Numbered from the stretch's first letter, positions 13,149 through 62,514 are shown. The stretch: DNA of 64,000 nucleotides from an uncultured Chloroflexia bacterium (GCA_963700595.1 CAVOYE010000011.1:218336-282335); one strand, 5' to 3'. The notes: generated by a model not told the origin, from the letters alone. Made by a program: numbers and translations.

Positions 13149-14330
13149 TTATAGCAGTCCGAGGGCAGTGTGTTTTTCGAATATTGTTTCCGCCAGCGCA
13201 TCAAGGGTTGCGAATACCTCAGACTTCGGCATGCCTTTGCAGAGTACGGTTCCGAGAACTTCGACCTTCAAGTTCGGGATCAATCCGGTAATCGTTTCTA
13301 CGGCTTTCGTGCCCCATCCATAGGAGCCAATAACCGCAGCATACTTCAGTTTAGGGTGCAGCGCGTTTGCCAGGTGTGTTGCGGAAAATACACTGGGGTG
13401 GGGGCCAAAATGGACTGTGGGCGTTCCAATCACGATCGTCGCTGCATCAACCAGGGAAATAGCCAATTTCCCAATGTCAGTCACTGATAATTCAAACTGC
13501 TGAACAGTGATGCCCTTCTCGACTAAAGCAGCGGTCAGGTACATTGACCATGGTATTCCGTGCTGCCATGCATGGAGATGTACGGGATCACAACCAGATT
13601 CGAGACGCGGTCGGAGACCCAGTCCGCATACGCATCAAGGATCCAGTCCGGGTGATCATAGATTGGACCGTGACTGGGCGCTAAATAGTCAAATTCTACC
13701 TCGCGTATCTTCTTCAGGTTGCTGATAATTCTTTGCCGGAAGGGCATCATAATTTCCGCATAGTAACGCTTGGCTGCCTCGTAGACTAGTGGGATCGCTT
13801 CCTGTAAAGAGATTGGTGGTGGCAATGTGTGAACCAAAGAAATCGCACGTAAAAAGAATGCGATCCTCAGAAAGGTAAGTGACCATGGTCTCGGGCCAGT
13901 GTACCCACGGGGTATATATAAACCGGAGTGTTTTCCCGCCGAGGTTAAGGATTTCCCCATCCTCAACGGTGCGAATGCGTGCGGGATCAATGTCAAGGTG
14001 TTCAATCAGCAGCGCCTGTGCTTTTTGTGAACACAGGACTTTTGCCTTTCCGTATTTCTGAATGACATATGGAATAGCCCCTGAATGATCCTGTTCTGCA
14101 TGTTGGCAAACAATGTAATCTACGCTCTCAACATCTTCCAACTGTTGTGCCAGGATATCCACAAAGGCAGGATCGACTGTATCTATTAATACTGTTTTTT
14201 CGGTGCCTTGAATAAGATAAGCATTATAACTTGTGCCGTCCGGCAGTGGAATGAGGGCATCGAACAAACGGCGATTCCAGTCAACTGCACCCATCCAATA
14301 TACTCCATCACAGATTTGTCTCTTTTTCAT
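13149..14330 (-). CDS. fprA: FprA-type flavodiiron protein (frameshifts near 13790 and 13545)
   Basis: GTSYNAYLI, HAEQDHSG, HWPET, CDFFGSH, APSHGP, flavodoxin YISMHGST, GSYGWG. Confidence 0.9.
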
Positions 14331-14353
14331 CTATGTCTCCTTACTGTTATAGC

Positions 14354-15036
14354 TTAGCCTGCAGCTTCGTTTCCATCCGGATCCGCATCCAGTGATGTCA
14401 GCCCCTCTCGCAAAGCATACAGCGCGGCCTGAACGCGATTCGCCAGGTACAGCTTGCTCATAATGTTGCTCACGTGCGTGCGCACGGTCGGGGCGCTGAT
14501 ATGCAATTTCTCGGCAATGTCCTGATTGCTCAACCCTTGAGCCACCAGGCGCAGCACCTCGGCTTCGCGCTCGGTCAGCGGATCTGTCGTCGGGGGACGG
14601 TCCGAGGGATGCGCAATCTCTTGCAGGACTTTGCGGGCGATGACCGGGTGCAGCGACGATTCCCCGCGATAGATCTGGTGGATCGCCTGCACGAGGTCTT
14701 CCGGGGCGGATTCTTTGAGGAGATAGCCCAGAGCGCCGGCTTTGATGGCCGGAAGCACTTTGTCATCGGTCGCAAAGCTGGTCATGACGAGGATGCGGCT
14801 CTCCGGCTGCTGGCTCTTGATCTGGCGGGTAGCCTCGATGCCGTCCAGCCGGGGCATGCGCCAGGTCCATCAGAGATCACGTCAGGGCGGAGACGGTTGG
14901 CCTGTGCGATAGCCTCCTGCCCATCGGCAGCCTCGCCCACCACCTCAATGCCCGCGATCTCCGTCAGCAAGGCGCGGATGCCTTTGCGGACAATCGTATG
15001 GTCGTCCACGATCAAAACGCGAATGGTCTGGCTCAT
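14354..15036 (-). CDS. NarL/LuxR-family response regulator (frameshift near 14870)
   Basis: [35 protein letters not shown]...TVRTHVSNI. Confidence 0.9.
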
Positions 15037-17222
15037 ACGTCTCCTCATCTTTCATGGCGACGTCCACCGTCACCGTCGTTCCCTGCCCCGGTTGGCTGTC
15101 CACGGTGACGCGGCCGCCGATCTTGGCAGCCCGCGCCTCGAAACTGTGCAGTCCCATCCCCCCGGCAGTCTGGGCGCTGAGCGGATCAAAGCCGATACCG
15201 TCATCGTGCACTTGCAGGCAAACGGTCCCGGTCGGTGAACTCGTAATCGAATTTTCACATGCTGCGCCTGGGCGTGTTTCATGACGTTGTTGAGCGCCTC
15301 TTGCGCGATCCGGTAGAGTTCCTGTTCGATCTCAATCGGCAAACGACGCTCGCCTTCTACCTCGAGTTCGGCATGCACGCCGGCGCGCGCCTCCACCGCC
15401 GCCAGCCGGACGCGCAGGGCCGTCACCAACCCATCCTGTTCCAGCGCGGGCGGGTGCAGCTCAAAGATCAGCAGCCGCATATCGTACATCGCGCTCCGCG
15501 CCGTGTCGCGCAGTTCTTGCAGGTGATTCACCGTCACGTCCTGTTTGCCGGCCGTCAGGGCCAGCGCCGCCGCATCCGCGTAGAGCGCCATACTGTAGAG
15601 CGATTGCACGACCGAGTCGTGCAGTTCCCGCGCCAGGCGCTGCCGCTCCTCCAGCACCGCCAATTGCCCGGCTTGCTGATTGAGCCGGGCGTGTTCGATG
15701 TTGATGGCGGCCTGATTGGCAAAGAGACTGACGATCCGGATATCGTCCTTCACAAAGCCGCCGGGTTTGTCTACCACTTCCAGCACGCCGATGACGTCGC
15801 CGTTGGCGTGCAACGGCACGGACAAAAAGGCCGTGGGGCGTTTCCCCCGCAGATACTCGTACGACTCGCCGGCGGGCGCGTTGGTCAAAAAGGGTTCATT
15901 CCGGCGCACGGTGATGCCGGCCAAAGACCCTGCGATGGGGATACGGTCAAAGAACGCCGGTTCTGTTCCGCTGCTGTAGGTCACGCGCAGCCAGTTCGCT
16001 GTCTTCTACGAGCAAGACCGCACTGCCCGTAGCGCCGGTCAGTTGCTGGGCCTCGGCGCAGACGATCTCGAGCACCTCCTCCGGGCTGACCTTGTGGAGC
16101 AACGCGGCCGCCACCCGCTGCAATCCCTGGCTTTCGGCCAGGCGCTGGCGCGTTTCTGCGTACAAGCCGGGCGTTGTCCACCGCCAACGCCACCGAGTTG
16201 GCAATGCCCCAGACCAGTTCGATCTCGTCGGGCGTGAACTGGCGATAGTCGCTGGAGGTGCTGAGCAGCGCCAGTCCCAACACCTTGGCGCTCACCCGGA
16301 TGGGCACGGCCAACACCGATTTGATGTTCCAGGTCTGCGCCATCTCCTGGCTGATCCGGGGATCGGCCGCGGCATCGTACCAGACCGCCGGCGCCTGGCG
16401 CTCTAACGCCTCACCCGCCAGAGAATTAACGACCGGATCCAGATACCGCTCACGCAAGTCACCGCGGTCCACCTCGGTCAACGGCCCGCGGACCACGTGG
16501 GGCACCAGCACCCCGCGTTCAGCATCCATCAGATAGATGCCGCAGTAGGGCACGTCCACGGCGGCGATCCAGGGCATCGGCCACCCGCTCCAGCACCTGG
16601 GCCGGTTCCAGCGCGCTGCTGGCCGTCTGGGCCGTGTGCAACATCAGGGCGATGTGCTGTTGCGCGCGGAGGAGATCGGCGTTGAAGGTGGCGGAGGTCC
16701 CCACGAGTTGCTTGTGCTCCCACCCCATCGTCGCCAGCATTTGGGCCAGCCGGATTTGCGCCGCCATGACCACCCGCAGCCGCTCTTCCGAAATGATGGG
16801 CACCTGCCGGAGTGCCGCCAGGTAGGCTTCTTCGTCAACCTGCAACTCTTGCGCCTGCTGGCGGAAGAATGCTTCATCGGGCGGCGCGTGCAGGAATTGG
16901 CCCATGAACAGGGTGGCAATGTGTTCGCCTTTGACCATCACCGGCATAGCACAGTTCATCAGGCCATGCGAGCACTGGTGCACCACATAGGTCGCCCTCG
17001 TGCAAATGGCTGAAAAGGTAGTCGTCACTGTAGGGTGCAGCGGCCCTCGGCCTCTGGCGGGAGGTGATGAAAGCGGGTGCAGATATCCTGCCAGCCCACG
17101 GCGCACAGGCAGTGTCGCTCCGTATCCAGCAGCGCGGTGGCAACACCGACGACGCTATACCACGACTGCATCACCTGCTGAAAGCCGGGCAGGTCTACCA
17201 GGTCGGCAAAACTATACTGCAT
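14945..17222 (-). CDS. Sensor histidine kinase: PocR + 2 GAF + HisKA_3 + HATPase (several frameshifts)
   Basis: [11 protein letters not shown]...WQDICTRFH...C..GL...MGQF (PocR); GAF segments; [13 protein letters not shown]; [11 protein letters not shown]; DDGIGF, GGMGL. Confidence 0.85.
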
Positions 17223-17387
17223 AGAACAACTCCTTTCACTATTTCTGGCAGACGACGCAGGGGGTGAATTACACCCATGGCCGGCCGATAGCATACCCCG
17301 CACCTCATTATATACCCAACAGTGCTGAATGCGCTTCAACGCTAAGTGTATATTTCTCTCCATAGAAAGTGGAGCATACGTAGCGTC

Positions 17388-17460
17388 CATATCCGCCGAT
17401 TGTGGAACTAAAATCCACACTGCCCCGATGACAGCCTGGTCATTGCGATGTATGCTGAGA
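17388..17460 (+). promoter_or_regulatory. Conserved upstream element, copy A (before csbD)
   Basis: TGTGGA-N7-TCCAC-N8-GATG-N16-GATGTA; ungapped match to 28660-28732. Confidence 0.65.
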
Positions 17461-17562
17461 GAGTCACAAGGATAAGTGATTTTTGTCCAAACGTCATTGG
17501 TATGCAAGATGGTTCAATTTTCAACTCGGGCAGTTAATTTGATGGAACAGGGAGGGTTACAT

Positions 17563-17796
17563 ATGAATAAAGATATATTTGAAGGTAAGTGGAAGCAATT
17601 GCAGGGACAGGCAAAAGTGTTGTGGGGCAAACTCACTGATGACGATCTGAAGCAGGTCGGTGGTAAGTATGATAAATTCGTCGGCATGATTCAGGAAAAG
17701 TATGGATATACCCGCGAACGCGTCGAAGAAGAAATAGATCGCCTGACTGCTGAGCATGAACCCCACCCGGATAAGGTCGAAGTCGCGGACGCATAA
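17563..17796 (+). CDS. CsbD family protein
   Basis: MNKDIFEGKWKQLQGQAKVLWGKLTDDDL...IQEKYG; RBS GGAGG. Confidence 0.9.
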   Translation: MNKDIFEGKWKQLQGQAKVLWGKLTDDDLKQVGGKYDKFVGMIQEKYGYTRERVEEEIDRLTAEHEPHPDKVEVADA

Positions 17797-17915
17797 TGCG
17801 CCTGTTCCATTCCGGCACATCTGCTCAGGTTACACGGTATCAGGAGCAGGACCTCGCGAGTTGGTTGAAAGATGGATCGCTCGCGATCTCAGATAGTATA
17901 TAGGAGATAAAAATC

Positions 17916-18086
17916 ATGAAACTCAGTGCACCCAAAGTTGCTACGTTCTGGATTGCTGTGGCTCTCGCAGCCCTTGGGCTTCTCGCTCAGCAAGGTATCC
18001 TTTCCCAACTTGCCAGCTACGCATTCTGGTTGGTGGTGGCCGGATTTGTGGTCCTGGCCCTCGGGAATTTAATGAGAAATCTGTAG
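17916..18086 (+). CDS. Small 2-TM membrane protein (56 aa, not in ORF track)
   Basis: RBS AGGAG; MKLSAPKVATFWIAVALAALGLLAQQGILSQLASYAFWLVVAGFVVLALGNLMRNL*. Confidence 0.75.
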   Translation: MKLSAPKVATFWIAVALAALGLLAQQGILSQLASYAFWLVVAGFVVLALGNLMRNL

Positions 18087-32762: not shown

Positions 32763-32855
32763 CAGAATTTGAGTACAGTTGTTATTTCATAAAATAAGAT
32801 ATATACTTATAGCTAATATCCCGATTCACATAACTGCAAAAAAGGAGTAAGTATC

Positions 32856-33364
32856 ATGTCAGAACCATTCTTGGCAGAGATTAGAATTGTTGGGTTTAAT
32901 TTTGCTCCACGCGGTTGGGCATTTTGTGATGGTCAAATTCTACCTATAAATCAAAACCAGTCGCTGTATTCTTTGTTAGGGACAACCTACGGGGGGGATG
33001 GTCGCACCACCTTTGCCCTTCCTGATTTGCGCAGCAGAGTGCCTATACATACGGGGGGCAGCAATGGTACTTCTCATACTTTGGGATCGAAAGCTGGTCA
33101 GGAAACTCACACGCTGACGGTGTCCGAGATACCTCAGCACACCCACAGCATCCAGGCGTCTTCAGATGGTTCGGATTCCCAGGATCCCACAGATAGAGTA
33201 TTGGCACAATCAGGGCAGGTTTATCGTAATACAGCCTCTTTAGTGGACATGGTGAGTGGATCGATGACCAATACGGGTGGTGGGCAGGTGCATGAAACAT
33301 GCAGCCCTTCCTGGCTCTCAACTTCTGTATCGCATTGACGGGTTTATTCCCGTCGAGAAATTAA
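32856..33364 (+). CDS. Phage tail collar domain (MdpB-like) protein 1 (frameshift near 33295)
   Basis: EPFLAEIR..GFNFAPRGWAFCDGQ...YGGDGRTTFALPDLR; alternative frame gives ...MQPFLALNFCIALTGLFPSRN*. Confidence 0.9.
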
Positions 33365-33374
33365 GGAGGAAGTG

Positions 33375-33893
33375 ATGTCTGAACCATTTGTAGGTGAGAT
33401 TAGAATGTTCGCTGGTAACTTTGCACCCCGAGGTTGGGCGTTTTGTGATGGGCAGCTATTGGCTGTTTCGCAAAATGATGCCTTGTTCTCGCTTTTTGGC
33501 ACGATCTATGGAGGTGATGGACGCACAACCTTTGGCCTTCCTGATTTGCGAGGGCGGGTTCCCGTCCATGCCGGGCAGGGTCCAGGACTTTCAGAGCGGC
33601 GGTTAGGCTCTAAGGGTGGTGCTGAAAATGTGACAGTCACTGTAAATCAACTTGCCTCTCATACGCATTTAGTGAAAGGAACAAATGAGCCTGCTGACGC
33701 CACCGTTCCTTCCAGCAGGCTTCCCGCTGGATCCAGCACCGTTAGTTTATACGCCAGCACTGCGCCTACGGTAGATTTCAACGCAGCAGCGGTACCTGCA
33801 GTAGGTGGTAGCCAATCGCACGACAATCTGATGCCTTTTTTGTGCATTAATTTTATTGTGGCTTTGATTGGCATATACCCATCGAGACAATAG
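33375..33893 (+). CDS. Phage tail collar domain (MdpB-like) protein 2
   Basis: Same collar motif; ends NLMPFLCINFIVALIGIYPSRQ. Confidence 0.9.
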   Translation: MSEPFVGEIRMFAGNFAPRGWAFCDGQLLAVSQNDALFSLFGTIYGGDGRTTFGLPDLRGRVPVHAGQGPGLSERRLGSKGGAENVTVTVNQLASHTHLVKGTNEPADATVPSSRLPAGSSTVSLYASTAPTVDFNAAAVPAVGGSQSHDNLMPFLCINFIVALIGIYPSRQ

Positions 33894-33903
33894 GAGAAAA
33901 ATC

Positions 33904-34422
33904 ATGTCTGAACCATTTATCGCAGAAGTCAGGATATTTGCCGGTAACTTTGCTCCCCGTGGATGGGCATTTTGTGATGGGCAACTGCTGCCAATTGCGC
34001 AGAATACAGCGCTGTTTTCACTGATTGGCACCACTTATGGCGGTGACGGACGTACTACTACCGCATTACCTAACTTGCAGGGTCGCGCTCCGATGCATCC
34101 GGGTCAAGGTCCAGGACTGACAGCCCGGAGACTGGGTGAAAAAGGTGGAGTTGAGACCGTCGCACTTTCTGAAGCACAAATGCCCAATCATCTCCATACT
34201 TTACGCGCAACGGTGAGTCGGGGTAGCGCCAGTCAACCGCAGGGCAATGCCTTTAACCGCTCTACCGGTGATACGGCATACCTTGCCCCGACGAACTTAA
34301 CTGGAATGTCTACAACGATGGCAGCAAATACCGGGGGAGGTCAACCCCACAACAATCTGCAGCCATTCCTTACGCTCAACTTTATCATCGCGCTGGTAGG
34401 GTTATATCCTTCGAGAAACTAA
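33904..34422 (+). CDS. Phage tail collar domain (MdpB-like) protein 3
   Basis: Same collar motif; ends NLQPFLTLNFIIALVGLYPSRN. Confidence 0.9.
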   Translation: MSEPFIAEVRIFAGNFAPRGWAFCDGQLLPIAQNTALFSLIGTTYGGDGRTTTALPNLQGRAPMHPGQGPGLTARRLGEKGGVETVALSEAQMPNHLHTLRATVSRGSASQPQGNAFNRSTGDTAYLAPTNLTGMSTTMAANTGGGQPHNNLQPFLTLNFIIALVGLYPSRN

Positions 34423-34457
34423 GTGAGGAAACTCCTGTAAATACTGTATGAAAAGGG

Positions 34458-35513
34458 TTGCACATCATGCATCTGAAAACGCTGAGATTCGCTACAGACG
34501 CGCTTCTTCATGAAGAGGATCGAGGGATGATTTATCTATCTCTCAAGTGCATCCATTCTGTTTTTTCTGAACTATCAACCGTAAAGGGTGATATCCTTGA
34601 ACAGCACCACGATAAGGAATCTTTCCTGGATAGTGGCGTAGCCATCTCGCCGCACCTGGCGGCGAGATGCTTGTTTGATCCCTTACGCACTGTGCAATTC
34701 CTGCGGGGAATAAACCACGCCATCCATGAGGTGATGGATCGATTCCCGGGTGAGAGGATCAATATCGTTTATGCGGGATGCGGGCCTTATGCAACCTTGC
34801 TGCTGCCCCTGACCACGCAATTTGAGCCCGGGCAGATACGATTAACCCTTATCGATATTCACAAACCTTCCATTGATGGGGTTAACCTTATCATCAAGGC
34901 CCTGGGTCTCGAAGATTATGTCGATGCATGTATTCAAGCGGATGCAGTCCGGTATACGTATCCCGAAGATATCCCCTTACATATGGTGGTCAGTGAAACA
35001 ATGCAGGCGGGTCTGGCAAGAGAACCCCAACTGGCGATCATGCGCAATTTTCTGCCCCAACTCCACGGAAACGGACTGTTCATTCCTGAGAAAATAACCG
35101 TAGATGCATACTTGAGCAGTTCAGAAACTGAAGATATAGGATTGTTGATGCACCGTGATGCATCGGGTTATCCGGTCGGGCATGAATTTAAACCCCAAGC
35201 TAATCGTCTATGGCTTAGGCGTGTTGTCGAAGTGAATTCAAAATCACCGCAACAACAGATATTCAACCAGAAGTCGGATTTAGTCGCACTTACCAACATC
35301 GAGATTCCGCCCCACGATCAGAAATTCGATCAATTTTTATTATTAACCACGATAGGCATTTTCGGCTCCTATAATCTGGAACCCTATGACTGTGAATTAA
35401 GTTTTCCCCTGCGACTGCATGATTTGAACGGGATTTCCAGTGGCAGCAAAATCCAATTCTTTTACCAGTCTTCGCACGTTCCAGGGCTGAGCTATGAACG
35501 CATTAGCGCTTAG
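34458..35513 (+). CDS. Class I SAM-dependent methyltransferase, PRMT-like
   Basis: Motif I IVYAGCGP, motif II LIDIH, IQADA, VVSETMQAGLARE (E-x8-E), GLFIP. Confidence 0.7.
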   Translation: MHIMHLKTLRFATDALLHEEDRGMIYLSLKCIHSVFSELSTVKGDILEQHHDKESFLDSGVAISPHLAARCLFDPLRTVQFLRGINHAIHEVMDRFPGERINIVYAGCGPYATLLLPLTTQFEPGQIRLTLIDIHKPSIDGVNLIIKALGLEDYVDACIQADAVRYTYPEDIPLHMVVSETMQAGLAREPQLAIMRNFLPQLHGNGLFIPEKITVDAYLSSSETEDIGLLMHRDASGYPVGHEFKPQANRLWLRRVVEVNSKSPQQQIFNQKSDLVALTNIEIPPHDQKFDQFLLLTTIGIFGSYNLEPYDCELSFPLRLHDLNGISSGSKIQFFYQSSHVPGLSYERISA

Positions 35514-35522
35514 GATCAAACT

Positions 35523-36002
35523 ATGAAAAGAAAAATTACCCTTCGTCCGGTTACGATTGCGGACAGACCATTTCTCAGCGAAGTTTATGCCAGCACCCGG
35601 CAGGATGAGCTATCTGTTCTTGCCTGGAGTGATTCTGAAAAAGAAACATTTCTGAAGTTTCAGTTTGATGCTCAAGACACGTATTATCATGAGCAATTCG
35701 ATTCGGCTGATTTTTTTGTTATTGAAAGAGAGCATAAGCCCGTTGGACGTTTGTATCTTGATCATCGGAAAGATGAGATTCGCATCATCGATATTTCTTT
35801 ACTGCCTCCATATCGCAACCAGGGTATCGGAACTGCTTTTTTAACCGAAATCTTGACTGAAGGTGAAGCTGCCGGATTACCGGTACGCATTCATGTCGAA
35901 TCCAACAATCCAGCCTTGCGGTTGTACAATCGTCTAGGCTTCCAGAAAGTTGACGAAAATGGTGTTTACTATTTAATGGAGAAATTACCGGACCGGTGTT
36001 AA
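35523..36002 (+). CDS. GNAT family N-acetyltransferase
   Basis: IIDISLLPPYRNQGIGT, NPALRLYNRLGF. Confidence 0.9.
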   Translation: MKRKITLRPVTIADRPFLSEVYASTRQDELSVLAWSDSEKETFLKFQFDAQDTYYHEQFDSADFFVIEREHKPVGRLYLDHRKDEIRIIDISLLPPYRNQGIGTAFLTEILTEGEAAGLPVRIHVESNNPALRLYNRLGFQKVDENGVYYLMEKLPDRC

Positions 36003-36013
36003 GGAGAAGATTA

Positions 36014-36331
36014 ATGCTTGATAAACTAACCAGTGAAGATTTTTCTGCGCATATCCATGAATCATTCAGAATAAAACCCGAAGGAGGCGACAATGGGGCA
36101 ACCTACGGTCCGGGTGTGGCTGAGTTAATCGAAGTCAACGAGTTAAGCACACCGCAAAATAGACCGGAGAAAAGAACCCCCTTTTCCCTCATATTTCGAT
36201 GTTCCAATGAAGTCATCATGCCACAGCAAATTTATCTGGTTGAACACGCTCAACTGGGACCGCTCATGATGTTTCTGGTGCCCGTTGGTCAGGATCAAGA
36301 AGGTTACCTCTATGAGGCAATATTTACGTAA
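36014..36331 (+). CDS. DUF6916-like protein
   Basis: LTSEDF...PFSLIF...PQQIY.VEH..LG...MFLVPVG...YEAIF pattern typical of collar-GNAT clusters. Confidence 0.7.
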   Translation: MLDKLTSEDFSAHIHESFRIKPEGGDNGATYGPGVAELIEVNELSTPQNRPEKRTPFSLIFRCSNEVIMPQQIYLVEHAQLGPLMMFLVPVGQDQEGYLYEAIFT

Positions 36332-36459
36332 AGCAATAGCAATCAATTTAACTATAAACAATTCAGCATAGAAAGCACTAGACATTTATCGGTATGATAG
36401 GTATAGTGGGCATAATTAGCTACCCAGACCTGTGGAAACCAGAGGAGGAAGGGAGTACC

Positions 36460-36783
36460 ATGAAAAGAAGAGCATTTTTAAAACTGACAGCATTGGCTTC
36501 GGCAGCGTTATTTCTACAAAATGCAGGATGGAATGTAACTGCTGGCATGCCCACGCAAAATCAGCATAAAGGTATGGTGTTCAAGGGAAATTCACTTGGA
36601 GAAATATATTGTTCGCGAGATGAGGGAGAAACCTGGCAGGCGCACACCCGCTTGAGTCCTGGGACCTCTATCGCAGGAATTCACGGTGACCCATCAGGGC
36701 GGCTTTATGCTCAAGTGGTATATTCAGGCTATAGCTTTGAGTTGATGTTAACCGATGATGGGCTTAACTGGATGTCGGTTTGA
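36460..36783 (+). CDS. Tat-exported small protein with Asp-box motifs
   Basis: MKRRAFLK twin-arginine signal; SRDEGETW and TDDGLNW. Confidence 0.65.
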   Translation: MKRRAFLKLTALASAALFLQNAGWNVTAGMPTQNQHKGMVFKGNSLGEIYCSRDEGETWQAHTRLSPGTSIAGIHGDPSGRLYAQVVYSGYSFELMLTDDGLNWMSV

Positions 36784-36832
36784 TAATGTTAAAAGAAAAT
36801 GTCGTGACTCCGATATATCGTTTCAGTGATAG

Positions 36833-39800
36833 GTGAGGTTAAAGATGAAAACAAGAAAACAGCGTTACATGTGGGCTTTGCTCGGAAACGTGAGTCTATT
36901 CGCAGTTATCGGACTGATATTAATGGTTGCAGTTGGACCGTCATCTGCAGATCCGATACTCACTGCCAGCAAATCCGACATAATATTTATTGACAGCTAT
37001 TCAAACAACGTGGCGAATGCAGGTGACACGATCCGCTACACCACAATTGTCACCAACAGCGGTTCGACGGGAGCCGTAAACATGGCTTTCGTGGATACCA
37101 TCGATCCTGATACCACTTTGGTTGCCGGTTCGGTTCGCACAACCCCCATTGCCCGGCATGATACCTATACTTCAATCGGCAATGTGGGGATCAGTGTTCC
37201 AGCGGGCAGTGGTGTGCTGGCTAACGATAACGATCCTGATGGCAGCACGCCAGTTCTCACCATCGTCAGCTTTGACGCCACCAGTGCCAATGGTGGTAGT
37301 GTTGCTGTGGCAGCTGATGGCAGCTTTACCTACCTACCAACCCCGGGTTTTGAGGGATCTGATTCATATACATATACGATCCAGGACAGCGATGGCAATA
37401 CTGATCCTGCAACCGTCGTTATCAGCGTCAACGATGTGATCTGGTTTATTGATAACAGCGCCGGGGGTGGGGGAGATGGACGTCTTGGTACTCCGTTTGA
37501 CAGTTTGGCAGCGTATGATGCAACTGCCGCGGATGAATCTGGGGATGTTATCTTCCTTTACGAATCAGGCAGCGGTGACTACAGCGGTGGTATCATACTG
37601 CTCAACGACCAGAAACTCATTGGGGAAGGAGCGACAGCCACAATTGCTTCGATTGCCGGTATCACGCTGCCCGCGTTCAGCAACGCTTTACCCGCCACAT
37701 CAGGCAGCAAACCCACGATTATCAACGCTGCCGGTAATGGCATCACCTTGGCAGCAAATAACACCATTCGCGGTCTTAATGTCGGAAACACTACCGCCAC
37801 CGGTATTGCGGGCAGCTCTGTCGGTACATTGACGCTGAGTGATGTTTCAATTACCGGTAGCGGTAAGGGCGTTGATATCAACGGCGGAGCTATGGCGGCT
37901 ACTTTCGACAGCATAGCTGTTTCTTCTTCCACAACTGGTGGGGTATCCCTGCAAAGTGTTTCCGGGACGACAAATATCAACGCTTTGAGTATCACCAACA
38001 GCAGCAGTACAGGTTTGCTGGCTTTATCCGCCGGCACGATAAACATCAACGGCGCCGGCAATATCATCAACACCACCAATGGTACAGCCGTTAACCTCAC
38101 GAACACGAGCATCGGCAGCAGCGGGATAACCTTTCTGAGCGTTTCAGCCAGCGGGACTGACACCGGTATCACACTCAACAACACCGGCATCGGCGACTTC
38201 ACAATTACCGGTAACGGGACAACCGACGGCAGTGGTGGTATCCTGACAAACTTGAACGATCACGGCATCGAACTCATTAACGTGCAGGATGTCTTCATCA
38301 GCAATATGAATTTGAATAACGCGGCTTTGACCCAGGAGGTTGAACCCAACACGGTGACCTGTACGAACCTGTCAAATGGCAGTAACCTGGGCTGTAACGC
38401 TCCGGTGCACATGGTTAATGCGAACAATATAAACCTGACCAACCTGACCATCAACGGCAGTGTGCAGCATGGGGTCAACGGAAACAACGTTAATGGTCTG
38501 ACCATCAGCAATACCGACGTGACCAACATTGGCAATCAAAACAAAGAAAACGGGATGCATTTCATCAATCTGCTGGGTACGGTCAGTTTCAGCAATGTCA
38601 GTGTCATCGGCTCCAATACACGTAACGTGTTGATTGAGAACAACACCGGTATAGCCAATGTCACAGTCACCGGTTCCACCTTCAACACTGCGGGTAGTGA
38701 AGTCGGTCTCGATTTTCTCGGACTGGGCACGGCGAACATCACCTTCAGCGTCAGCGGCAGCAGCTTTTACCGCAACAATTCTGTGCAGCTCAAAGCGCTG
38801 GCTTCGGGCAGCAGCACAATGAATGCCACCATTAACGGCAGCAACACGTTTGAAGGTAACCCAGCTGTGACAGGCAATTCGGGTGTCGATCTGGACGCGG
38901 TTGATGGCGCAACCCTTACCTTTAACGTTTCAGGTAATACTTTCCAACCCTTCAGAAGTCAGGTGATCAACGTTTTCACCTCAGGTGGCGGTACTGCTTC
39001 GGGGCGGGTAAACGGGAACACGATCACAGGATCAGCCTTCGGCGCCGGTGTTCGTGCCGTAGCCGAAGTGACCGATGTCAACGGCACAAACCCCGGCATC
39101 ACGATTGAGATTAATAACAACAGCATCAGTGGTGTAGCGGGTGGCGGGTTAGCCGGTATCCATATCGAAGCCCGTGATGGCAGCAATGGCTTGACAGGCG
39201 TGGCTAACGTTGATGCCACGGTTATCAATAATAACGTCACCACCAATGGCGCTGACGCGGCGATACAGGTATATCTCGAGGATCTGAACGGCACCGCTAA
39301 CCGCGTCTGCATTAACGCCACAGGTAATGCTACGCAAGCCGTAGGGGGTGCTTTTGGTGAGACCGATTTCTTCTTCGGAAATAATGCCGCTTCAGGGACA
39401 AATTCGGGGATTGCTCAGATGCAGGGTTATTCTGGCAGTGTCAGCAATACCTGGTTTACGGTAAATAGCAATACCAGTACAACCACCATACCATTTGCCG
39501 ATAGTCTGGGTCCAATTGGTAGCGGTACTTGTGCCTTGGTTGCATCCGTTCTTCCTGCAGCTAACACCCCAATGATTACCCGGGATGTGCCGGTTTTACA
39601 TCTAACCCAGAATATATACTCAGATCTGGAGGGAGTTATCGATAACGCATTGATGGTACAGCGTGACCGCTTTGAAAAACAAGTGTCCGCGGTTGATCGT
39701 TCTGATCTGGTTGCCTTCAATACGCAAGTAAAGGCTAAAGTCAGAACATGGGCTGACTGGTTTGTCTCTGCTTTCAGGGTCTCGCCGGTTTTAGCCAGCG

Positions 39801-40153
39801 GCGAAACCATCAACCTGGACCTCGGCGACCTTGACCCCGGACAACAGGTGACCATCACGTTTGATGTAACGGTGGACAGTACAATTCCTGAAACTGCGAC
39901 GCAGGTGTGCAACCAGGGAACGTTTACCGGTGACAATGTTGCCAATTTATTGACTGATGATCCAGACCCGTCCGGTCCTGCAGATCCCACGTGCACCATT
40001 GCTTCGTCGACCACTGCGGTCACATTCACGACTTTGCAGGCGGATCAAGGCACTACTGGCTTACTCGCTGCTGTGATAGGCTTGGCTGGTAGTGCTGTAT
40101 TGGTTTACGCTTTATCCAAACGGGGGATTAAGAAATCAGATCTTTCTCGATAA
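36833..40153 (+). CDS. Large surface protein: split DUF11 + Ig-like (Big_9/cadherin-like) + parallel beta-helix + C-terminal anchor
   Basis: Signal peptide; GDTIRYTTIVTNSG; GVLANDNDPDG...DGSFTYLPTPGFEGSDSYTYTI; N/G/T/S-rich beta-helix repeats; LGDLDPGQQVTITFDVTV; TAVTF + TM + KRGIKK. Confidence 0.8.
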   Translation: MRLKMKTRKQRYMWALLGNVSLFAVIGLILMVAVGPSSADPILTASKSDIIFIDSYSNNVANAGDTIRYTTIVTNSGSTGAVNMAFVDTIDPDTTLVAGSVRTTPIARHDTYTSIGNVGISVPAGSGVLANDNDPDGSTPVLTIVSFDATSANGGSVAVAADGSFTYLPTPGFEGSDSYTYTIQDSDGNTDPATVVISVNDVIWFIDNSAGGGGDGRLGTPFDSLAAYDATAADESGDVIFLYESGSGDYSGGIILLNDQKLIGEGATATIASIAGITLPAFSNALPATSGSKPTIINAAGNGITLAANNTIRGLNVGNTTATGIAGSSVGTLTLSDVSITGSGKGVDINGGAMAATFDSIAVSSSTTGGVSLQSVSGTTNINALSITNSSSTGLLALSAGTININGAGNIINTTNGTAVNLTNTSIGSSGITFLSVSASGTDTGITLNNTGIGDFTITGNGTTDGSGGILTNLNDHGIELINVQDVFISNMNLNNAALTQEVEPNTVTCTNLSNGSNLGCNAPVHMVNANNINLTNLTINGSVQHGVNGNNVNGLTISNTDVTNIGNQNKENGMHFINLLGTVSFSNVSVIGSNTRNVLIENNTGIANVTVTGSTFNTAGSEVGLDFLGLGTANITFSVSGSSFYRNNSVQLKALASGSSTMNATINGSNTFEGNPAVTGNSGVDLDAVDGATLTFNVSGNTFQPFRSQVINVFTSGGGTASGRVNGNTITGSAFGAGVRAVAEVTDVNGTNPGITIEINNNSISGVAGGGLAGIHIEARDGSNGLTGVANVDATVINNNVTTNGADAAIQVYLEDLNGTANRVCINATGNATQAVGGAFGETDFFFGNNAASGTNSGIAQMQGYSGSVSNTWFTVNSNTSTTTIPFADSLGPIGSGTCALVASVLPAANTPMITRDVPVLHLTQNIYSDLEGVIDNALMVQRDRFEKQVSAVDRSDLVAFNTQVKAKVRTWADWFVSAFRVSPVLASGETINLDLGDLDPGQQVTITFDVTVDSTIPETATQVCNQGTFTGDNVANLLTDDPDPSGPADPTCTIASSTTAVTFTTLQADQGTTGLLAAVIGLAGSAVLVYALSKRGIKKSDLSR

Positions 40154-57825: not shown

Positions 57826-60800
57826 ATGACATTCCTTAATCCGCAAGGATTCTTTGGGCTGTTATTAGCCCTACCTATTATCGCACTCTATTTAATGCGA
57901 TTGCATTACGTTGATACTGTTATTCCCAGTCTTGCGCTGTGGCAGTCGCTGCTGCAGGACCGGCACGCCAACCACCTCTGGCAGAAACTCAGGAAACATT
58001 GGCTGCTGTTCCTGCAATTGCTTGTTTTGTTGTTGGTCGTCGTATCACTCGCGCAACCCGCTTTCCCCGCACCACTCCCGACGCCTGAGCGCGTTTTCGT
58101 TTTTCTTGATGTATCCGCGAGCATGAAAGCGCAGACAGAAGGGGACGGAACACGTTTTAGTGAGGCTGTGTCTGAAATACAGCACACTCTGTCCGGTTTA
58201 GGCAGCAAAGAGAATTTGACATTGATAAGTGTTGGTTTGACACCCGAAGTGGTGGTCAATAATGTCGATCTGAATCAGTTTGCCAAAGCATTGAAAGCGC
58301 TAGCCCCCCAGCAGGGCACTGCTGACTGGAACTCCGCTCCACGATTGGCAGCAGGGTTGGCGGGTGCAGAGCGTGCTTCTTCGACAACCACACTGGTTGT
58401 CAGTGATTTTGCGACCAGCGATATGCAGGCATTTGAGGAAGCCCCCTTTCCCGGAGAACTTTCTGTAATCAACGTGGGCGATCTCAGTGCTAATGCGGGC
58501 ATTGTGAACTTTGCCATTCAGCGTACAGATACGGGCACGACGGCGTTTCTCCGCATTCAAAATGCAGGTTCTCAAACGACCCGGACCGTGGATATTCTGG
58601 CAGACGGTGTTTTATTTTCACGACAGACTATGACTCTCCTCCAGGATGCGTCTGTCACTGTTTCTTATGAGGGTATTCCGGCTGAAGCGTGGGTGGAAGC
58701 CGTGCTGGTGGAGCCGGATGTCTTTACGCTTGATGACCATGCGTGGGCTGTGCTGGATGATAACAGCAATCAAGCGACGCTGCTGGTGAGTGCCGGCAAC
58801 CGGTTTCTGGCGCAGGCATTAGCCTCGCTGCCTGGTATCGACTTTTATCAGACCAGCAGCCTGATGAACGCGGATATTCTGGACGAAGGCCAATATGCCT
58901 CGCTGGTTGTTGACAGCGTCCCGGTACCCGCGCTTCTCCCGGCAAATTTGTGGATGATTGCGCCTGAGGGAGAATCGGTGTGCGGAACACCCGAGAATAT
59001 TTTCGTCCAACCGGCACACGTCAATGGGCAGTGGCAGCATCCGATTCTGGATTACGTCGATTGGTCGGATGTCCACGTGAGTCAAGCCCGGTTTTATCAC
59101 ATCCCCGCGAACAGTGAAATCCTCATGCAGTTTCAGGTGGTACCTCTCTTGTGGACAGTTGAAAGGGATGGATACAAAGCGGTTTGCACCGGTTTTAAAC
59201 TTCAAGACAGCGATTTACCTCTGCGCCTGGCTTTTCCTGTATTGACCTCAAATATCATGCGGTGGCTTACTTCAAGCACAGCAGAAGGTCCGTATATGGC
59301 GTTAACCCCCGGTCAAGTCTGGGTGCCTGCCTTAACGGTAAACACGACCACCGGCGTGATAACAGGTCCGGACAATGACCAGCGTCCTGTTCCGTTGGAT
59401 GGCTCCGGGATTGTTCTGGATGCTGTTGGCCTTTATCGTTACACCGCTACGACACCCGCAGGACCCGAAAGAACTTTTGTCGCCGTCTCGCTATTAGATT
59501 CCCGGGAAAGTGATTTGAGATCCCGCCATATATTGAAACCTGCTGCGCAGACTGCTGCCCCTCCATTAACCATGGGAAAGCGTGAAATCAACCGTTGGAC
59601 AATTGCCCTGGCAGTGGTGCTGTGTCTTCTCGAGGCTGTCCTATGGTGGTATAGAGGTTATGGATCCAGCAAGGTGTGGCTTTCGTCGATTCTCAAGGGT
59701 TCCGGTATTCCATTTGCTGTGATATTGCGGTGTGTCATGGTCATACTGCTCATTGGGGCATTTTTGGGTGTGCGTTTCCAACGGAGAACACGGGACTTGA
59801 ACCTTGTGTTTGTTGTTGATCATTCTGCCAGCACGCAAAGCGCCTGGGATGAACAGGATGAATTTATCAAGCAGGCTCTTGCAGCGAAAAAGCCCAAAGA
59901 CCAGGTTGCGGTGATCCTGTATGGGCAGGATGCATGGGTTGACCGGTCGTTTTCATCTGGGAATACACTCGCACCGCATAATACAATTCCGGAACGGAGT
60001 GCAACGGATAGTGAGCAAGCTATCCGTTTAGCTATGGCGCTTCTTCCCCAGGATGCCCCCGGGCGTATTGTCTTGATGAGCGACGGTCTTGAGACGACCG
60101 GGCAAGCTTCTGAGGCGCTGCGAGATGCACTGGCGCGCGGTATAGATGTGCAGTTGGTGCAACCTGAGGCTGGCATACCGGCATCTGAAGTATGGGTCGA
60201 AGAATTGCAGGTTCCCACAATGGTGTATCCTGGAGATCAGGTCCCCATCAATCTGCGGATGGCAACAAATACGCCGCAAACAGTAAGAGTGAATTGGACC
60301 GTCGGGACTGAGGTCGGATATGCCTTTGTCGACCTTGGCGCGAATAATAAGTCTTTTCAGTTCAGCATTGCGATTGAATCGGCAGGATTTGTACCGGTAC
60401 GGGTGTGTGTTGAACCTGTCGCAGACCAGTACATAGAGAATAATTGCGCTGAAACATGGATTGTCGCCCAGGGACCGCGTCAAGTCCTTGTTGTGGGGGA
60501 TCAATCCGAACGCGCAGCTTTATCCGCAGCGCTGCAATCCGCTGGATTACAATTGAATGAAGTTGAACCTGGGGCGATGCCCCAGACGCTTGAATCGCTA
60601 TCCGAATATGGTGCGGTCATTCTGGTTAATACGCCAGTACGTGATTTGCCCGTTCAAGGCATCGGCAATATTGTCCCTTATGTCAGGGATGTGGGTGGTG
60701 GATTGATAGCCGTAGGAGGACCGGAAAGTTACGGCGTGGGAGGATGGTTGGGTACCGCTTTAGAACAGGTATTGCCAGTTGAGATGCGAGTTTTGGACCC

Positions 60801-62514
60801 GCAGCGCTTCCCACCGATGATAATGGCTCTGGTGATTGATACCTCCGGAAGTATGGCGAGTGATGAAAATGGTATACCGAAAATTACTTTAGCTGCAGAA
60901 GCTGCCCTCCGCGTAGCTGAATCGCTTAATGTAGGCGACACGCTTGTTGTGATCGGGTACAGCGATGGTTTGGATGATACTTTTGGACCTATTTCGGTGG
61001 ATTTGCGGCAGAACCTGCAGCAGGAGTTCTACACATTACGCGCCGGCGGTGGTGGGATATTTGTGTATGAAAGCCTTGAATATGCGCTTGAAACTATCGC
61101 AGGTGTTACACAAGACAACGCCGATACAGATAATAACGCAACACAAAGCCATATCATACTGCTTGCTGACGGGAGCGATGCTGAACATCAGGAGGGTGTG
61201 CTCAATCTTGTCAAAGCACCGGCGGAGGATGGATTGAGCATCAGTGTGATATCGATTGGATTAGGCGAGGATGTTCCGTTTTTATCTGCACTCGCTGAGG
61301 CAGGAGATGGGCGTTTTTACCTTGCTGACCACGCCAGCGACCTGCCGTCCATCTTTACTGAGGAAGTAGCACGGTCAAAGCGTTCGTATATTGTGGAGGA
61401 ACCTTTTTACCCGGAGATTGCATCAGCCTGGGAACCCGTTGCCGGTCTGCGGGCATTTCCCCCTTTGTTGGGATATGTGGCTGTTTCACCTAAAAGCTCT
61501 GCAGAGATTGTGTGGTATGCGCATGCGGATGATCCGTTACTGGCAGTGTGGCAATATGGTTTAGGACGGTCCGTCGCGTGGATGTCTGACGCAACCAGTC
61601 GTTGGTCTGCACAATGGGTACCATGGGATAGGTTCTCTCAATTCTGGGGCTCGCTGACGCGCGCGGTGATGACGCCTGATATGGATCGTGATGTTGAGGT
61701 GCGCGTGCAAGTTGAGCGGCAAATTGCGCGCGTTACAGTTGACCTCACGGGAAATGCAGCTGTTGCTGATGAAAATCTTGACTTGCGACTGCGGTTCTCC
61801 GGAGTAAGCATGGTGGAAGAGGACTTAACCACGGATCTTGAACAAGTCGCGCCAGGTAGATATGAAGGCACTGTGAGCGGGGTTGGTCCCCATTCTTATC
61901 TTGTCCGGTTGTACGGAGACCGGAATCTGGTTTTCGGTTGGTCGCCACCTCCTTCCCGGGAGTATCTGCCCGGTGATGCGGCAGCGGCGATAAGTAGCCT
62001 TGCTGACCAGAGCGGTGCGCTTCTCATCACTAAAGCAATGGAGACAGTTGAGCACAACATCACGCGCCTGAACCATGGGCAACCTTTGACGCTCCCACTC
62101 CTGGCGCTCTCCGCATTCTTGTGGGTCAGTGATGTCGCCTGGCGGCGACTCTCGCTAACCTGGCAGGCGATTATCGTGTTCTTTTTACGGTTCAAACGGA
62201 CGCGGATCAAGGCATCCAGAAAGCTTGAAACCGCTACGCCATTAACAGGAAATCCTTCGACTGTATCCAGGTTAAGCGCGGTTATGCAATCCAGGCAGCA
62301 GAACGAGCGAATCGACGACCAGATTTCCCATCCATCGCCCGGGGATGTTTTATCTAATCCTGAAAGGGCGGGTAACCGGGATCCTGAAGACAAAACACGA
62401 AAAGAATCTGAGGATGACCTGGACGACGGCGATTCCAGCCTTGAAAGAAGGAACCTTGCCGCACGGTTAAGGAGTCGCTTGCGCAGAAATGACCATGAGA
62501 AACCTGAGAATTAA
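57826..62514 (+). CDS. BatA N-terminal + multiple VWA + glutamine amidotransferase-like (DUF1355) fusion
   Basis: MTFLNP..PIIALYL (BatA); MIDAS DVSASM, DHSAST, DTSGSM; GGGLIAVGGPESYGVGG, WQYGLGRSVAW. Confidence 0.8.
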   Translation: MTFLNPQGFFGLLLALPIIALYLMRLHYVDTVIPSLALWQSLLQDRHANHLWQKLRKHWLLFLQLLVLLLVVVSLAQPAFPAPLPTPERVFVFLDVSASMKAQTEGDGTRFSEAVSEIQHTLSGLGSKENLTLISVGLTPEVVVNNVDLNQFAKALKALAPQQGTADWNSAPRLAAGLAGAERASSTTTLVVSDFATSDMQAFEEAPFPGELSVINVGDLSANAGIVNFAIQRTDTGTTAFLRIQNAGSQTTRTVDILADGVLFSRQTMTLLQDASVTVSYEGIPAEAWVEAVLVEPDVFTLDDHAWAVLDDNSNQATLLVSAGNRFLAQALASLPGIDFYQTSSLMNADILDEGQYASLVVDSVPVPALLPANLWMIAPEGESVCGTPENIFVQPAHVNGQWQHPILDYVDWSDVHVSQARFYHIPANSEILMQFQVVPLLWTVERDGYKAVCTGFKLQDSDLPLRLAFPVLTSNIMRWLTSSTAEGPYMALTPGQVWVPALTVNTTTGVITGPDNDQRPVPLDGSGIVLDAVGLYRYTATTPAGPERTFVAVSLLDSRESDLRSRHILKPAAQTAAPPLTMGKREINRWTIALAVVLCLLEAVLWWYRGYGSSKVWLSSILKGSGIPFAVILRCVMVILLIGAFLGVRFQRRTRDLNLVFVVDHSASTQSAWDEQDEFIKQALAAKKPKDQVAVILYGQDAWVDRSFSSGNTLAPHNTIPERSATDSEQAIRLAMALLPQDAPGRIVLMSDGLETTGQASEALRDALARGIDVQLVQPEAGIPASEVWVEELQVPTMVYPGDQVPINLRMATNTPQTVRVNWTVGTEVGYAFVDLGANNKSFQFSIAIESAGFVPVRVCVEPVADQYIENNCAETWIVAQGPRQVLVVGDQSERAALSAALQSAGLQLNEVEPGAMPQTLESLSEYGAVILVNTPVRDLPVQGIGNIVPYVRDVGGGLIAVGGPESYGVGGWLGTALEQVLPVEMRVLDPQRFPPMIMALVIDTSGSMASDENGIPKITLAAEAALRVAESLNVGDTLVVIGYSDGLDDTFGPISVDLRQNLQQEFYTLRAGGGGIFVYESLEYALETIAGVTQDNADTDNNATQSHIILLADGSDAEHQEGVLNLVKAPAEDGLSISVISIGLGEDVPFLSALAEAGDGRFYLADHASDLPSIFTEEVARSKRSYIVEEPFYPEIASAWEPVAGLRAFPPLLGYVAVSPKSSAEIVWYAHADDPLLAVWQYGLGRSVAWMSDATSRWSAQWVPWDRFSQFWGSLTRAVMTPDMDRDVEVRVQVERQIARVTVDLTGNAAVADENLDLRLRFSGVSMVEEDLTTDLEQVAPGRYEGTVSGVGPHSYLVRLYGDRNLVFGWSPPPSREYLPGDAAAAISSLADQSGALLITKAMETVEHNITRLNHGQPLTLPLLALSAFLWVSDVAWRRLSLTWQAIIVFFLRFKRTRIKASRKLETATPLTGNPSTVSRLSAVMQSRQQNERIDDQISHPSPGDVLSNPERAGNRDPEDKTRKESEDDLDDGDSSLERRNLAARLRSRLRRNDHEKPEN

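Follow-up and report, generated by a model that had tools for sequence, protein, structure and literature searches.

We analysed a 64,000-nucleotide stretch of DNA (the window) from an uncultured Chloroflexia bacterium (GCA_963700595.1, CAVOYE010000011.1:218336-282335), in which three paralogous tail-collar genes stand in a row with genes for cellular proteins. Eight open reading frames (ORFs), all on the + strand, occupy positions 32856-40153 (Table 1) and are separated, in order, by gaps of approximately 10, 10, 35-44, 9, 11, 62-128 and 49-61 nt; the initial annotation had rightly described eight co-oriented, closely spaced genes. They encode three collar proteins (PF07484), a methyltransferase with the predicted fold of the protein arginine methyltransferases (PRMTs), a GNAT acyltransferase, a DUF6916 protein, a small protein and an 1106-aa surface protein. 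The whole genome (6.5 Mb in 22 contigs, 93% complete) contains only these three collar genes and only one DUF6916 gene. We found that collars of three types (A, B and C), the GNAT and DUF6916, usually together with a giant Ig/cadherin-like surface protein, constitute a module that is conserved, horizontally moving, non-viral and without a described function. No mention of the word DUF6916 was found in the literature searched.

Table 1. Features of the collar locus (positions in the window)
Feature	Position	Strand	Remarks
Promoter-like site TTGTTA-17-TATACT	32779..32807	+	49 nt 5' of collar 1; consensus match only
Collar paralogue 1, type A	32856..33338	+	160-aa ORF, last 13-14 residues out of frame; Pfam Collar E 6.4e-29
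Displaced 3' end of collar 1, conserved C-terminal motif	33299..33364	+	-1 frame; 1-nt gap near 33296
Collar paralogue 2, probably type B, intact, HxH	33375..33893	+	Pfam Collar E 9.6e-30
Collar paralogue 3, type C, intact, HxH	33904..34422	+	Pfam Collar E 2.8e-28
PRMT-fold class I SAM methyltransferase, 351 aa, accessory	34458..35513	+	Model-based fold; no Pfam match
Module-specific GNAT acyltransferase	35523..36002	+	Pfam Acetyltransf_1 E 2.3e-14
DUF6916, signal-less six-stranded beta-barrel (model)	36014..36331	+	Pfam E 5.9e-26
Small protein (129-aa ORF), twin-arginine-type signal KRRAFLK, Asp-box-like motifs	36460..36783	+	BNR E 0.0028, below cut-off
1106-aa surface protein	36833..40153	+	Pfam Big_9/Cadherin_4/Cadherin_5; NCBIfam DUF11 repeat

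Three collar proteins and a frameshift in the first

The three collar proteins score 100.1, 102.8 and 98.1 bits against PF07484, for which the gathering score is 24 bits, and they match T4 gp12 and a long tail fibre (8kec) by sequence with E values of 8e-7 to 2e-4. The Pfam collar domain extends from residue 8 onward and therefore leaves no room for a signal peptide, in agreement with the initial annotation. PHROG tail-protein profiles span residues 8-165, and each collar protein thus corresponds to a complete fibre tip (collar and head) that lacks a shaft. An HxH motif (HTH, HTH and HLH) is present in each of them, and both histidines are invariant in the alignments of types A, B and C. In phage fibres, the HxH motifs supply six histidines to a metal on the three-fold axis. 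The middle 'head' regions are the most divergent part among the three paralogues, and type-specific differences are found in the conserved collar core, too. The N-termini are also conserved, with a Met, a small residue and then Pro-Phe or Pro-Tyr.

A length of about 170 aa and a common C-terminal motif had been ascribed to all three proteins. This is true of collars 2 and 3, but collar 1 is an ORF of 160 aa that ends in unrelated residues, and its P-F...P-S-R-N motif is found in the -1 frame, up to position 33364. When the DNA is aligned with the intact orthologue of another locus (L007), a single-base gap appears in collar 1. The shifted tail is still conserved, with 19 of 21 residues identical to L007 and a ratio of non-synonymous to synonymous substitutions (dN/dS) of 0.055, so the break is either very recent or an assembly error. 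Collar A of this genome would thus either have lost 1 nt recently or reflect a sequencing error. The module genes show dN values of 0.13-0.54 with saturated dS in comparison with L007, indicating purifying selection.

A recurrent module of collars, GNAT and DUF6916

The survey of the module was seeded on its rarest member, by searching genomes with the Pfam model of DUF6916. Among 41 genomes, namely this one and its nearest relatives, only this genome has a DUF6916 match above the cut-off, and collar genes are found in none of the 40 relatives. We conclude that this lineage acquired the module. DUF6916 exists in 8 of 401 sampled Chloroflexota genomes and 27 of 301 sampled Acidobacteriota genomes. 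The other Chloroflexota loci (7/7) all have three tandem collars and a GNAT of the same subfamily beside DUF6916. The collar triplet is present in 23 of the 30 acidobacterial regions analysed, corresponding to 24 of the 27 genomes, and 22 of these 23 regions also have this GNAT; two genomes have a DUF6916 gene with no collars within ~8 kb, and one contig is too short to judge. The neighbourhood survey thus bears out the recurrent association of three collars, GNAT and DUF6916 that the initial annotation had described. Module loci are also present in Verrucomicrobiota, and the gene order varies between loci. DUF6916 has at least 202 homologues, all unnamed, and Atlas clusters point to Pseudomonadota and Actinomycetota as further hosts.

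In two Sphingobacteriaceae loci (L022 and L027), collar triplets adjoin a PRMT-fold methyltransferase in Pedobacter-like genomes with no DUF6916 match (genome G443); cultured Bacteroidota thus have a variant of the module that lacks DUF6916. In two IMG/VR records (L131:2400-3758 and L132:3459-4484), a phage-type integrase gene lies 2.4-3.2 kb from a collar triplet and a GNAT gene, at the edge of predicted proviruses. These integrase-flanked loci fit a module carried on integrative islands.

The GNAT matches Acetyltransf_1 with 54.1 bits (cut-off 20.7), as well as Acetyltransf_7, _10 and _3. It is not a RimI equivalog, since its score of 47.1 bits for TIGR01575 in NCBIfam is below the cut-off of 86.4. 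From the conserved N-termini of the collars, N-terminal acylation of these proteins by the GNAT is a reasonable guess, nothing more.

The methyltransferase matched no family of Pfam or NCBIfam, and a profile built from 21 homologues found no PDB sequence at E values up to 1. Its predicted structure (pLDDT 89.4) is nevertheless that of a PRMT: all Foldseek matches shown are PRMTs (E 3.6e-12), as are all 50 matches shown by VIA (Z 17.6-19.3, rmsd 3.4-4.2 Å), whose alignments comprise 244-283 residues and span residues 48-351. According to this model, the 351-aa protein has the two-domain PRMT fold, with a Rossmann S-adenosylmethionine (SAM)-binding domain and a beta-barrel. Thus, the term 'PRMT-like' used in the initial annotation is correct for the fold but does not extend to a sequence-level family. 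PRMTs possess a double-E loop motif. The family of the 351-aa protein has an invariant YAGCGP and, after strand 4, invariant E180 and E189, whose nine-residue spacing would fit that motif. A literature search on bacterial PRMTs gave nothing usable.

At least 405 genomic loci encode a member of this methyltransferase family. Among the best 80 of them, approximately 18 have any collar gene and four have both GNAT and DUF6916, and most neighbourhoods are unrelated. Conversely, a methyltransferase gene is found in none of the seven Chloroflexota loci and in one of the 23 acidobacterial loci found via DUF6916. With one occurrence in 30 DUF6916-seeded loci and few collar neighbours, we rejected it as a core member. 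The methyltransferase is a lineage-specific accessory, so methylation of the fibre, as proposed in the initial annotation, would be lineage-specific at best. Two natural methyltransferase-GNAT fusions of 426 and 492 aa (P0024 and P0117) were also found. These fusions suggest that the two enzymes share a target wherever they occur together.

We then considered the giant neighbour. Besides a DUF11 repeat and a Big_9/cadherin-like domain, the 1106-aa protein has long repeats rich in Thr, Asn and Gly, an N-terminal hydrophobic segment and, at the C-terminus, a hydrophobic anchor with a basic tail. In a single-linkage clustering of flanking ORFs from 12 loci, the large protein of 10 loci clusters with it. 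Its residues 43-385 share 32-44% identity with module-adjacent giants in L007, L087, L091 and L092, and other giants are joined to the cluster via shared repeat domains. Among five acidobacterial giants scanned, four contain Big_9/cadherin-like domains and one contains He_PIG Ig domains, and this set also includes beta-helix, DUF11 and DUF7933 domains. A 1563-aa fn3 protein bearing the IPTL-CTERM sorting signal is the neighbour in one IMG/VR locus. For counting, we used 35 loci with a triplet and DUF6916, and the surroundings of the methyltransferase gene in 36 collar-free loci as controls. A same-strand open frame of at least 900 aa lies within 500 nt of the triplet in 21/35 loci, as against 0/36 controls, and within 2 kb in 28/35 loci, as against 5/36 controls. 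The proximity to big surface proteins asserted in the initial annotation is thus borne out, as a usual feature of the module. Another IMG/VR locus (L133:504-8528) encodes three tandem proteins with collagen triple helices and CBM96 domains, directly followed by six collars (two triplets). This arrangement is a hint that trimeric stalks of the collagen type can serve as partners of collar trimers.

DUF6916 proteins exist in two forms, one of which carries a canonical signal for twin-arginine translocation (Tat). Of 42 loci, 13 have a Tat-type copy, as do 9 of the 11 that contain two DUF6916 genes. A further automatic Tat-type call, in L093, proved false, and the DUF6916 of the window has no signal. 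In three Acidobacteriota regions (L120, L121 and L123), a Tat-signal DUF6916 gene stands alone and far from any collar, as a second copy in a genome with the full module elsewhere. The 129-aa ORF of the window has its KRRAFLK followed by a hydrophobic stretch and thus carries a putative Tat signal. Among the loci examined, only L092 encodes a homologue; it has RREFLK and adjoins the module there, too. The Tat-type DUF6916 paralogues and the small protein suggest that parts of the system may be exported already folded. These Tat-type partners are the only lead on how signal-less collars might leave the cell. The structure of DUF6916 is predicted as a six-stranded barrel (pLDDT 88.8) with no Foldseek match at E ≤0.001. 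A PilZ-N/YcgR-N fold was considered for it, but the best VIA matches (Z 7.5-8.2) are at the background level of the tool, and no assignment was made. In addition, no PHROG match was obtained for DUF6916, the methyltransferase or the small protein, and the seven proteins of the locus other than collar 1 matched no family among the anti-phage defence models of PADLOC.

Alternatively, the module might work inside the cell, for example in a GNAT-centred modification or small-molecule pathway with the collars as cytoplasmic scaffolds, and the giants might be neighbours for regulatory or island reasons. The lack of signal peptides in the collars, the GNAT, the methyltransferase and the DUF6916 of the window is in line with this idea, as are the GNAT-methyltransferase fusions and the fact that the best matches of the DUF6916 barrel, albeit at background level, are the cytoplasmic PilZ-N/YcgR-N domains. 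The adjacent, co-directional giant genes (28/35 loci versus 5/36 controls) argue against it, together with the Tat signals of DUF6916 in 13/42 loci and the putative ones of the small protein in the window and L092. Moreover, the characterised relatives of the collar fold are all extracellular receptor binders, and a PF07484 protein is present in the exoproteome of Ruegeria, according to the available part of that report (PMC4949626). We therefore consider an intracellular function unlikely.

One collar of each type per locus

A maximum-likelihood tree was made from 45 collars of 15 loci, with no rows dropped and with collar 1 of the window trimmed before its out-of-frame tail. Type C forms a clade (support 97/95) of 10 position-3 genes from 10 loci, including collar 3 of the window. 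The type A clade (92/93) contains nine genes, and collar 1 of the window pairs with the first collar of L007 (L007_c1) at 100/100. The type B clade (82/67) contains seven genes, and the second collars of the window and L007 are placed beside this clade without resolution. The loci that are resolved by type hold one gene per type, across two phyla. L030 and L051 are exceptions in which the collars group by locus and not by type, which indicates independent triplication or gene conversion. Counting only tandem collar runs that do not reach a contig end, we found 13 triplets, three doublets and four singles, and one of the doublets is a triplet split by a DUF6916 gene. In the closest IMG/VR relatives, the runs contain 3, 3, 3, 9, 3, 3, 3, 6 and 3 collars. 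In one IMG/VR record (L129:1-5426), nine tandem collars (three triplets) fill a 5.4-kb contig.

The retention of one gene of each type and the multiples of three are as predicted for an obligate 1:1:1 trimer. The accessible text of a 2025 paper reports that three PF07484 proteins of a virophage co-purify 1:1:1 as a heterotrimer of ~55 kDa, and that the complex forms 16-nm fibres and binds Synechococcus cells (PMC12724248). Based on the three orthogroups, the runs of three, six and nine genes and this precedent, a 1:1:1 heterotrimer of collars A, B and C is favoured, as the initial annotation had proposed for the paralogues. A complex prediction for the collar trio of L007 with DUF6916 scored 0.01 against a mark of 0.32; having been run without controls, it is uninformative on binding.

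On the other hand, the three collars might be alternative homotrimeric heads that provide three binding specificities for the cell or for the giant protein. The solved relatives, T4 gp12 and 8kec, were deposited as single-sequence fibres, the head regions are the part in which the paralogues diverge most, and the copies in L030 and L051 resemble recent lineage-specific duplications. All of this would suit interchangeable heads. However, the retention, per locus and in two phyla, of exactly one gene from each of three old orthogroups speaks against this, as do the copy numbers in multiples of three and the type-specific differences that reach into the conserved collar core, and the virophage trio that co-purifies 1:1:1 is of the same family and size, as far as the available text of its report describes it (PMC12724248). 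We regard separate homotrimers as unlikely.

Genomic surroundings, an injection system elsewhere and known relatives

The annotated flanks of the locus, from 26 to 46 kb, are of housekeeping type (RNase II, SPFH, B12 radical SAM, GAF histidine kinase, rubrerythrin and LiaF-like proteins) and contain no phage structural gene. The matches of the genome to sheath, tube and baseplate-J families all lie outside the window; integrases were not searched for. The 'phage-free' character claimed in the initial annotation, with no sheath or baseplate gene nearby, therefore holds for the surroundings but has to be qualified by an extracellular contractile injection system (eCIS) on another contig. The orthologues of the flanking radical-SAM and histidine-kinase genes are on different contigs in the relatives, so the borders of the island are not definable.

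The cluster might be a decaying prophage or a tailocin tail-fibre remnant with no current function. The frameshift in collar 1 would be expected of such a remnant, the absence from the 40 nearest relatives shows that the module was acquired, and the integrase genes in the two IMG/VR records are only a few kb from the module. However, the same gene set recurs in 7/7 and 24/27 independent carriers, dN is far below a saturated dS in comparison with L007 and even the shifted tail of collar 1 is conserved. In addition, the annotated flanks lack phage structural genes, and PHROG matches are lacking for DUF6916, the methyltransferase and the small protein. Decay of a prophage is thus very improbable.

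Sites matching the promoter consensus are no more frequent than in shuffled sequence (seven seen, 11.3 expected), so the site upstream of collar 1 is not evidence alone; the promoter and terminator scans gave no better results than shuffled sequence. The region at 14000-18000 has a G+C content of 0.58-0.59, compared with 0.46-0.52 around it, and overlapping ORFs on both strands, and is possibly foreign DNA; no Rfam family matched in this 14-18 kb stretch. At 57826-62514 (+), a 1562-aa BatA/VWA/GATase1-like protein of the aerotolerance-type Bat kind is encoded, which is unrelated to the collar module.

The eCIS is canonical and lies on contig C6 at ~695.5-710.6 kb (L124:1532-16564). Its genes encode an AAA ATPase, a Pvc16-like cap, a sheath, two gp19-like tubes, a 769-aa orphan, a LysM-tube protein, a VgrG-like spike, PAAR, gp25, baseplate J and P2_I fused to FHA. 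About 4.5 kb downstream of this cluster lies the gene for a Ser/Thr kinase of 1251 aa that has FHA and SH3 domains. The collar trio could be a trans-encoded targeting part (tail fibre or tip) of this very eCIS, whose cluster shows no obvious fibre gene after the structural genes. A gp19-type tube is found in 13/27 DUF6916-positive as against 28/274 DUF6916-negative Acidobacteriota genomes (odds ratio 8.2, Fisher p 4e-6), a figure that ignores kinship and genome size and whose 28 include the unpublished G468 and G596. The top far-red-induced genes of Acaryochloris MU13 include collar genes as well as genes for sheath and baseplate, according to the accessible part of the report (PMC11633204). 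On the other hand, the eCIS tube is present in 24/40 relatives, including 19/21 of the genus, and collars in none, so the eCIS of the genus works without collars. No tube was found in 4/7 Chloroflexota and 14/27 Acidobacteriota carriers of the module, and the tube matches are never near a DUF6916 site: in G508 the distance exceeds 450 kb, and the others are on separate contigs. The collars also lack an N-terminal shaft or baseplate-attachment region. The initial annotation had named collars serving an eCIS elsewhere in the genome as a possible contradiction. An eCIS does exist, and we keep this idea as a minor rival that is distinctly unlikely.

Taken together, we favour the reading that this is a conserved, mobile, non-viral module in which a collar heterotrimer and a giant protein act as a recognition or adhesion device, and we give it a probability of about one half. 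The three gp12/gp37-type tips, with one copy of each, would most likely form a metal-centred heterotrimer of ~55 kDa, which would bind a carbohydrate or other surface ligand. The giant Sec-exported Ig/cadherin-like/beta-helix protein would be an envelope-anchored stalk or partner with the collar trimer as its binding head. GNAT and DUF6916 could be maturation or export helpers, and the partners with Tat signals might mean that some parts are exported pre-folded.

Several points weigh against this reading. Because the collars have no signal and the GNAT and the methyltransferase need cytoplasmic cofactors, a role at the surface requires an unproven export route, and Tat-type partners exist in only about one third of the loci. 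The links between the giants are partly via repeat domains, so the giants are a heterogeneous class rather than a strict orthologue family. Seven of the 35 loci have no open frame of at least 900 aa within 2 kb; among these, the frame is ~2.4 kb away in the window and L007 and ~3.4 kb away in L090, and no such frame was seen in L015, L087, L101 and L102, at least three of which are cut by a contig or locus end. Several loci encode DUF6916 on the other strand, the present copy has a broken gene for one of its three collars, and the collars of L030 and L051 do not sort by type. T4 gp12 and gp37 are homotrimers. Finally, the module is enriched in those Acidobacteriota genomes that bear an eCIS tube.

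A more elaborate scheme would be a cellular 'tail fibre' of several phyla, a heterotrimeric gp12-type receptor-binding head that folds in the cytoplasm, is loaded with metal and acylated by the GNAT, is exported folded by the Tat route via DUF6916 or the small partner, and is mounted on a cadherin-like adhesin to recognise cells or surfaces, perhaps also for eCIS targeting. As a whole, this scheme is improbable to much the same degree as the eCIS rival. No devices for the recognition of cell surfaces are better understood than the receptor-binding tips of phages. If the favoured reading is true, domesticated tips in a fixed three-gene set with helpers and adhesins would make up a new class of bacterial apparatus for adhesion or recognition, DUF6916 would gain a function, and a cellular case of an obligate heterotrimeric fibre tip would be at hand. 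Independently of this, the PRMT-fold family offers a lead on bacterial methylation of arginine in proteins. In its model, the 351-aa protein has the Rossmann domain and C-terminal beta-barrel in common with eukaryotic PRMT5, 7, 9, 6 and CARM1, and differs from them by ~50 extra N-terminal helical residues and by having no sequence-level match.

The collars resemble the C-terminal receptor-binding domain of the T4 short tail fibre gp12 (1OCY, 1PDI and 5IV5) and the tips of 8KEC in their collar sequence and in an HxH at the phage position, and they are similar in size to the crystallised T4 gp12 fragment (198 residues). Unlike T4 gp12, they have neither a shaft nor a baseplate-binding N-terminus and are encoded by three paralogues instead of one gene. 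Unlike phage tips, they are found in a non-viral setting with a GNAT, DUF6916 and a giant surface protein.

Non-phage collars of the RhiB type and the COG4675 'microcystin-dependent protein' group provide a bacterial comparison. RhiB of the Rhizobium rhiABC(D) operon is a tail-collar protein tied to interaction with other organisms (PMC13133039, PMC4949626). The operon is under quorum-sensing control, and RhiA and RhiC have no Pfam domain (PMC13133039). In the available parts of these reports, no triplet, GNAT or DUF6916 is described for RhiB (PMC13133039, PMC4949626).

A parallel in gene arrangement is the tripartite tail of virophage DSLV2, for which the accessible text describes three consecutive, co-oriented PF07484 genes for proteins of ~170-190 aa, as in the window (PMC12724248). 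The DSLV2 proteins, with a theoretical mass of 58.3 kDa as a trio, group by gene position in phylogenies and were found to be a heterotrimer by co-purification and electron microscopy (PMC12724248). The DSLV2 trio adjoins a capsid gene and is proposed to be on the capsid, whereas the trio of the window is flanked by cellular genes. In the same text, no GNAT, DUF6916 or giant adhesin is reported for DSLV2 (PMC12724248). The likeness drawn here is at the level of the PF07484 family. A row of similar gene content exists in Acaryochloris marina, in which AM1_3684-AM1_3690 include, in a row, three 'phage tail collar' genes, a 'conserved hypothetical' and a 'putative acetyltransferase', and are co-induced in far-red light, according to the available part of the report (PMC11633204). 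Judging from these annotations, AM1_3684-AM1_3690, with AM1_3687 as a candidate DUF6916 gene, are probably the same module in a cultured organism.

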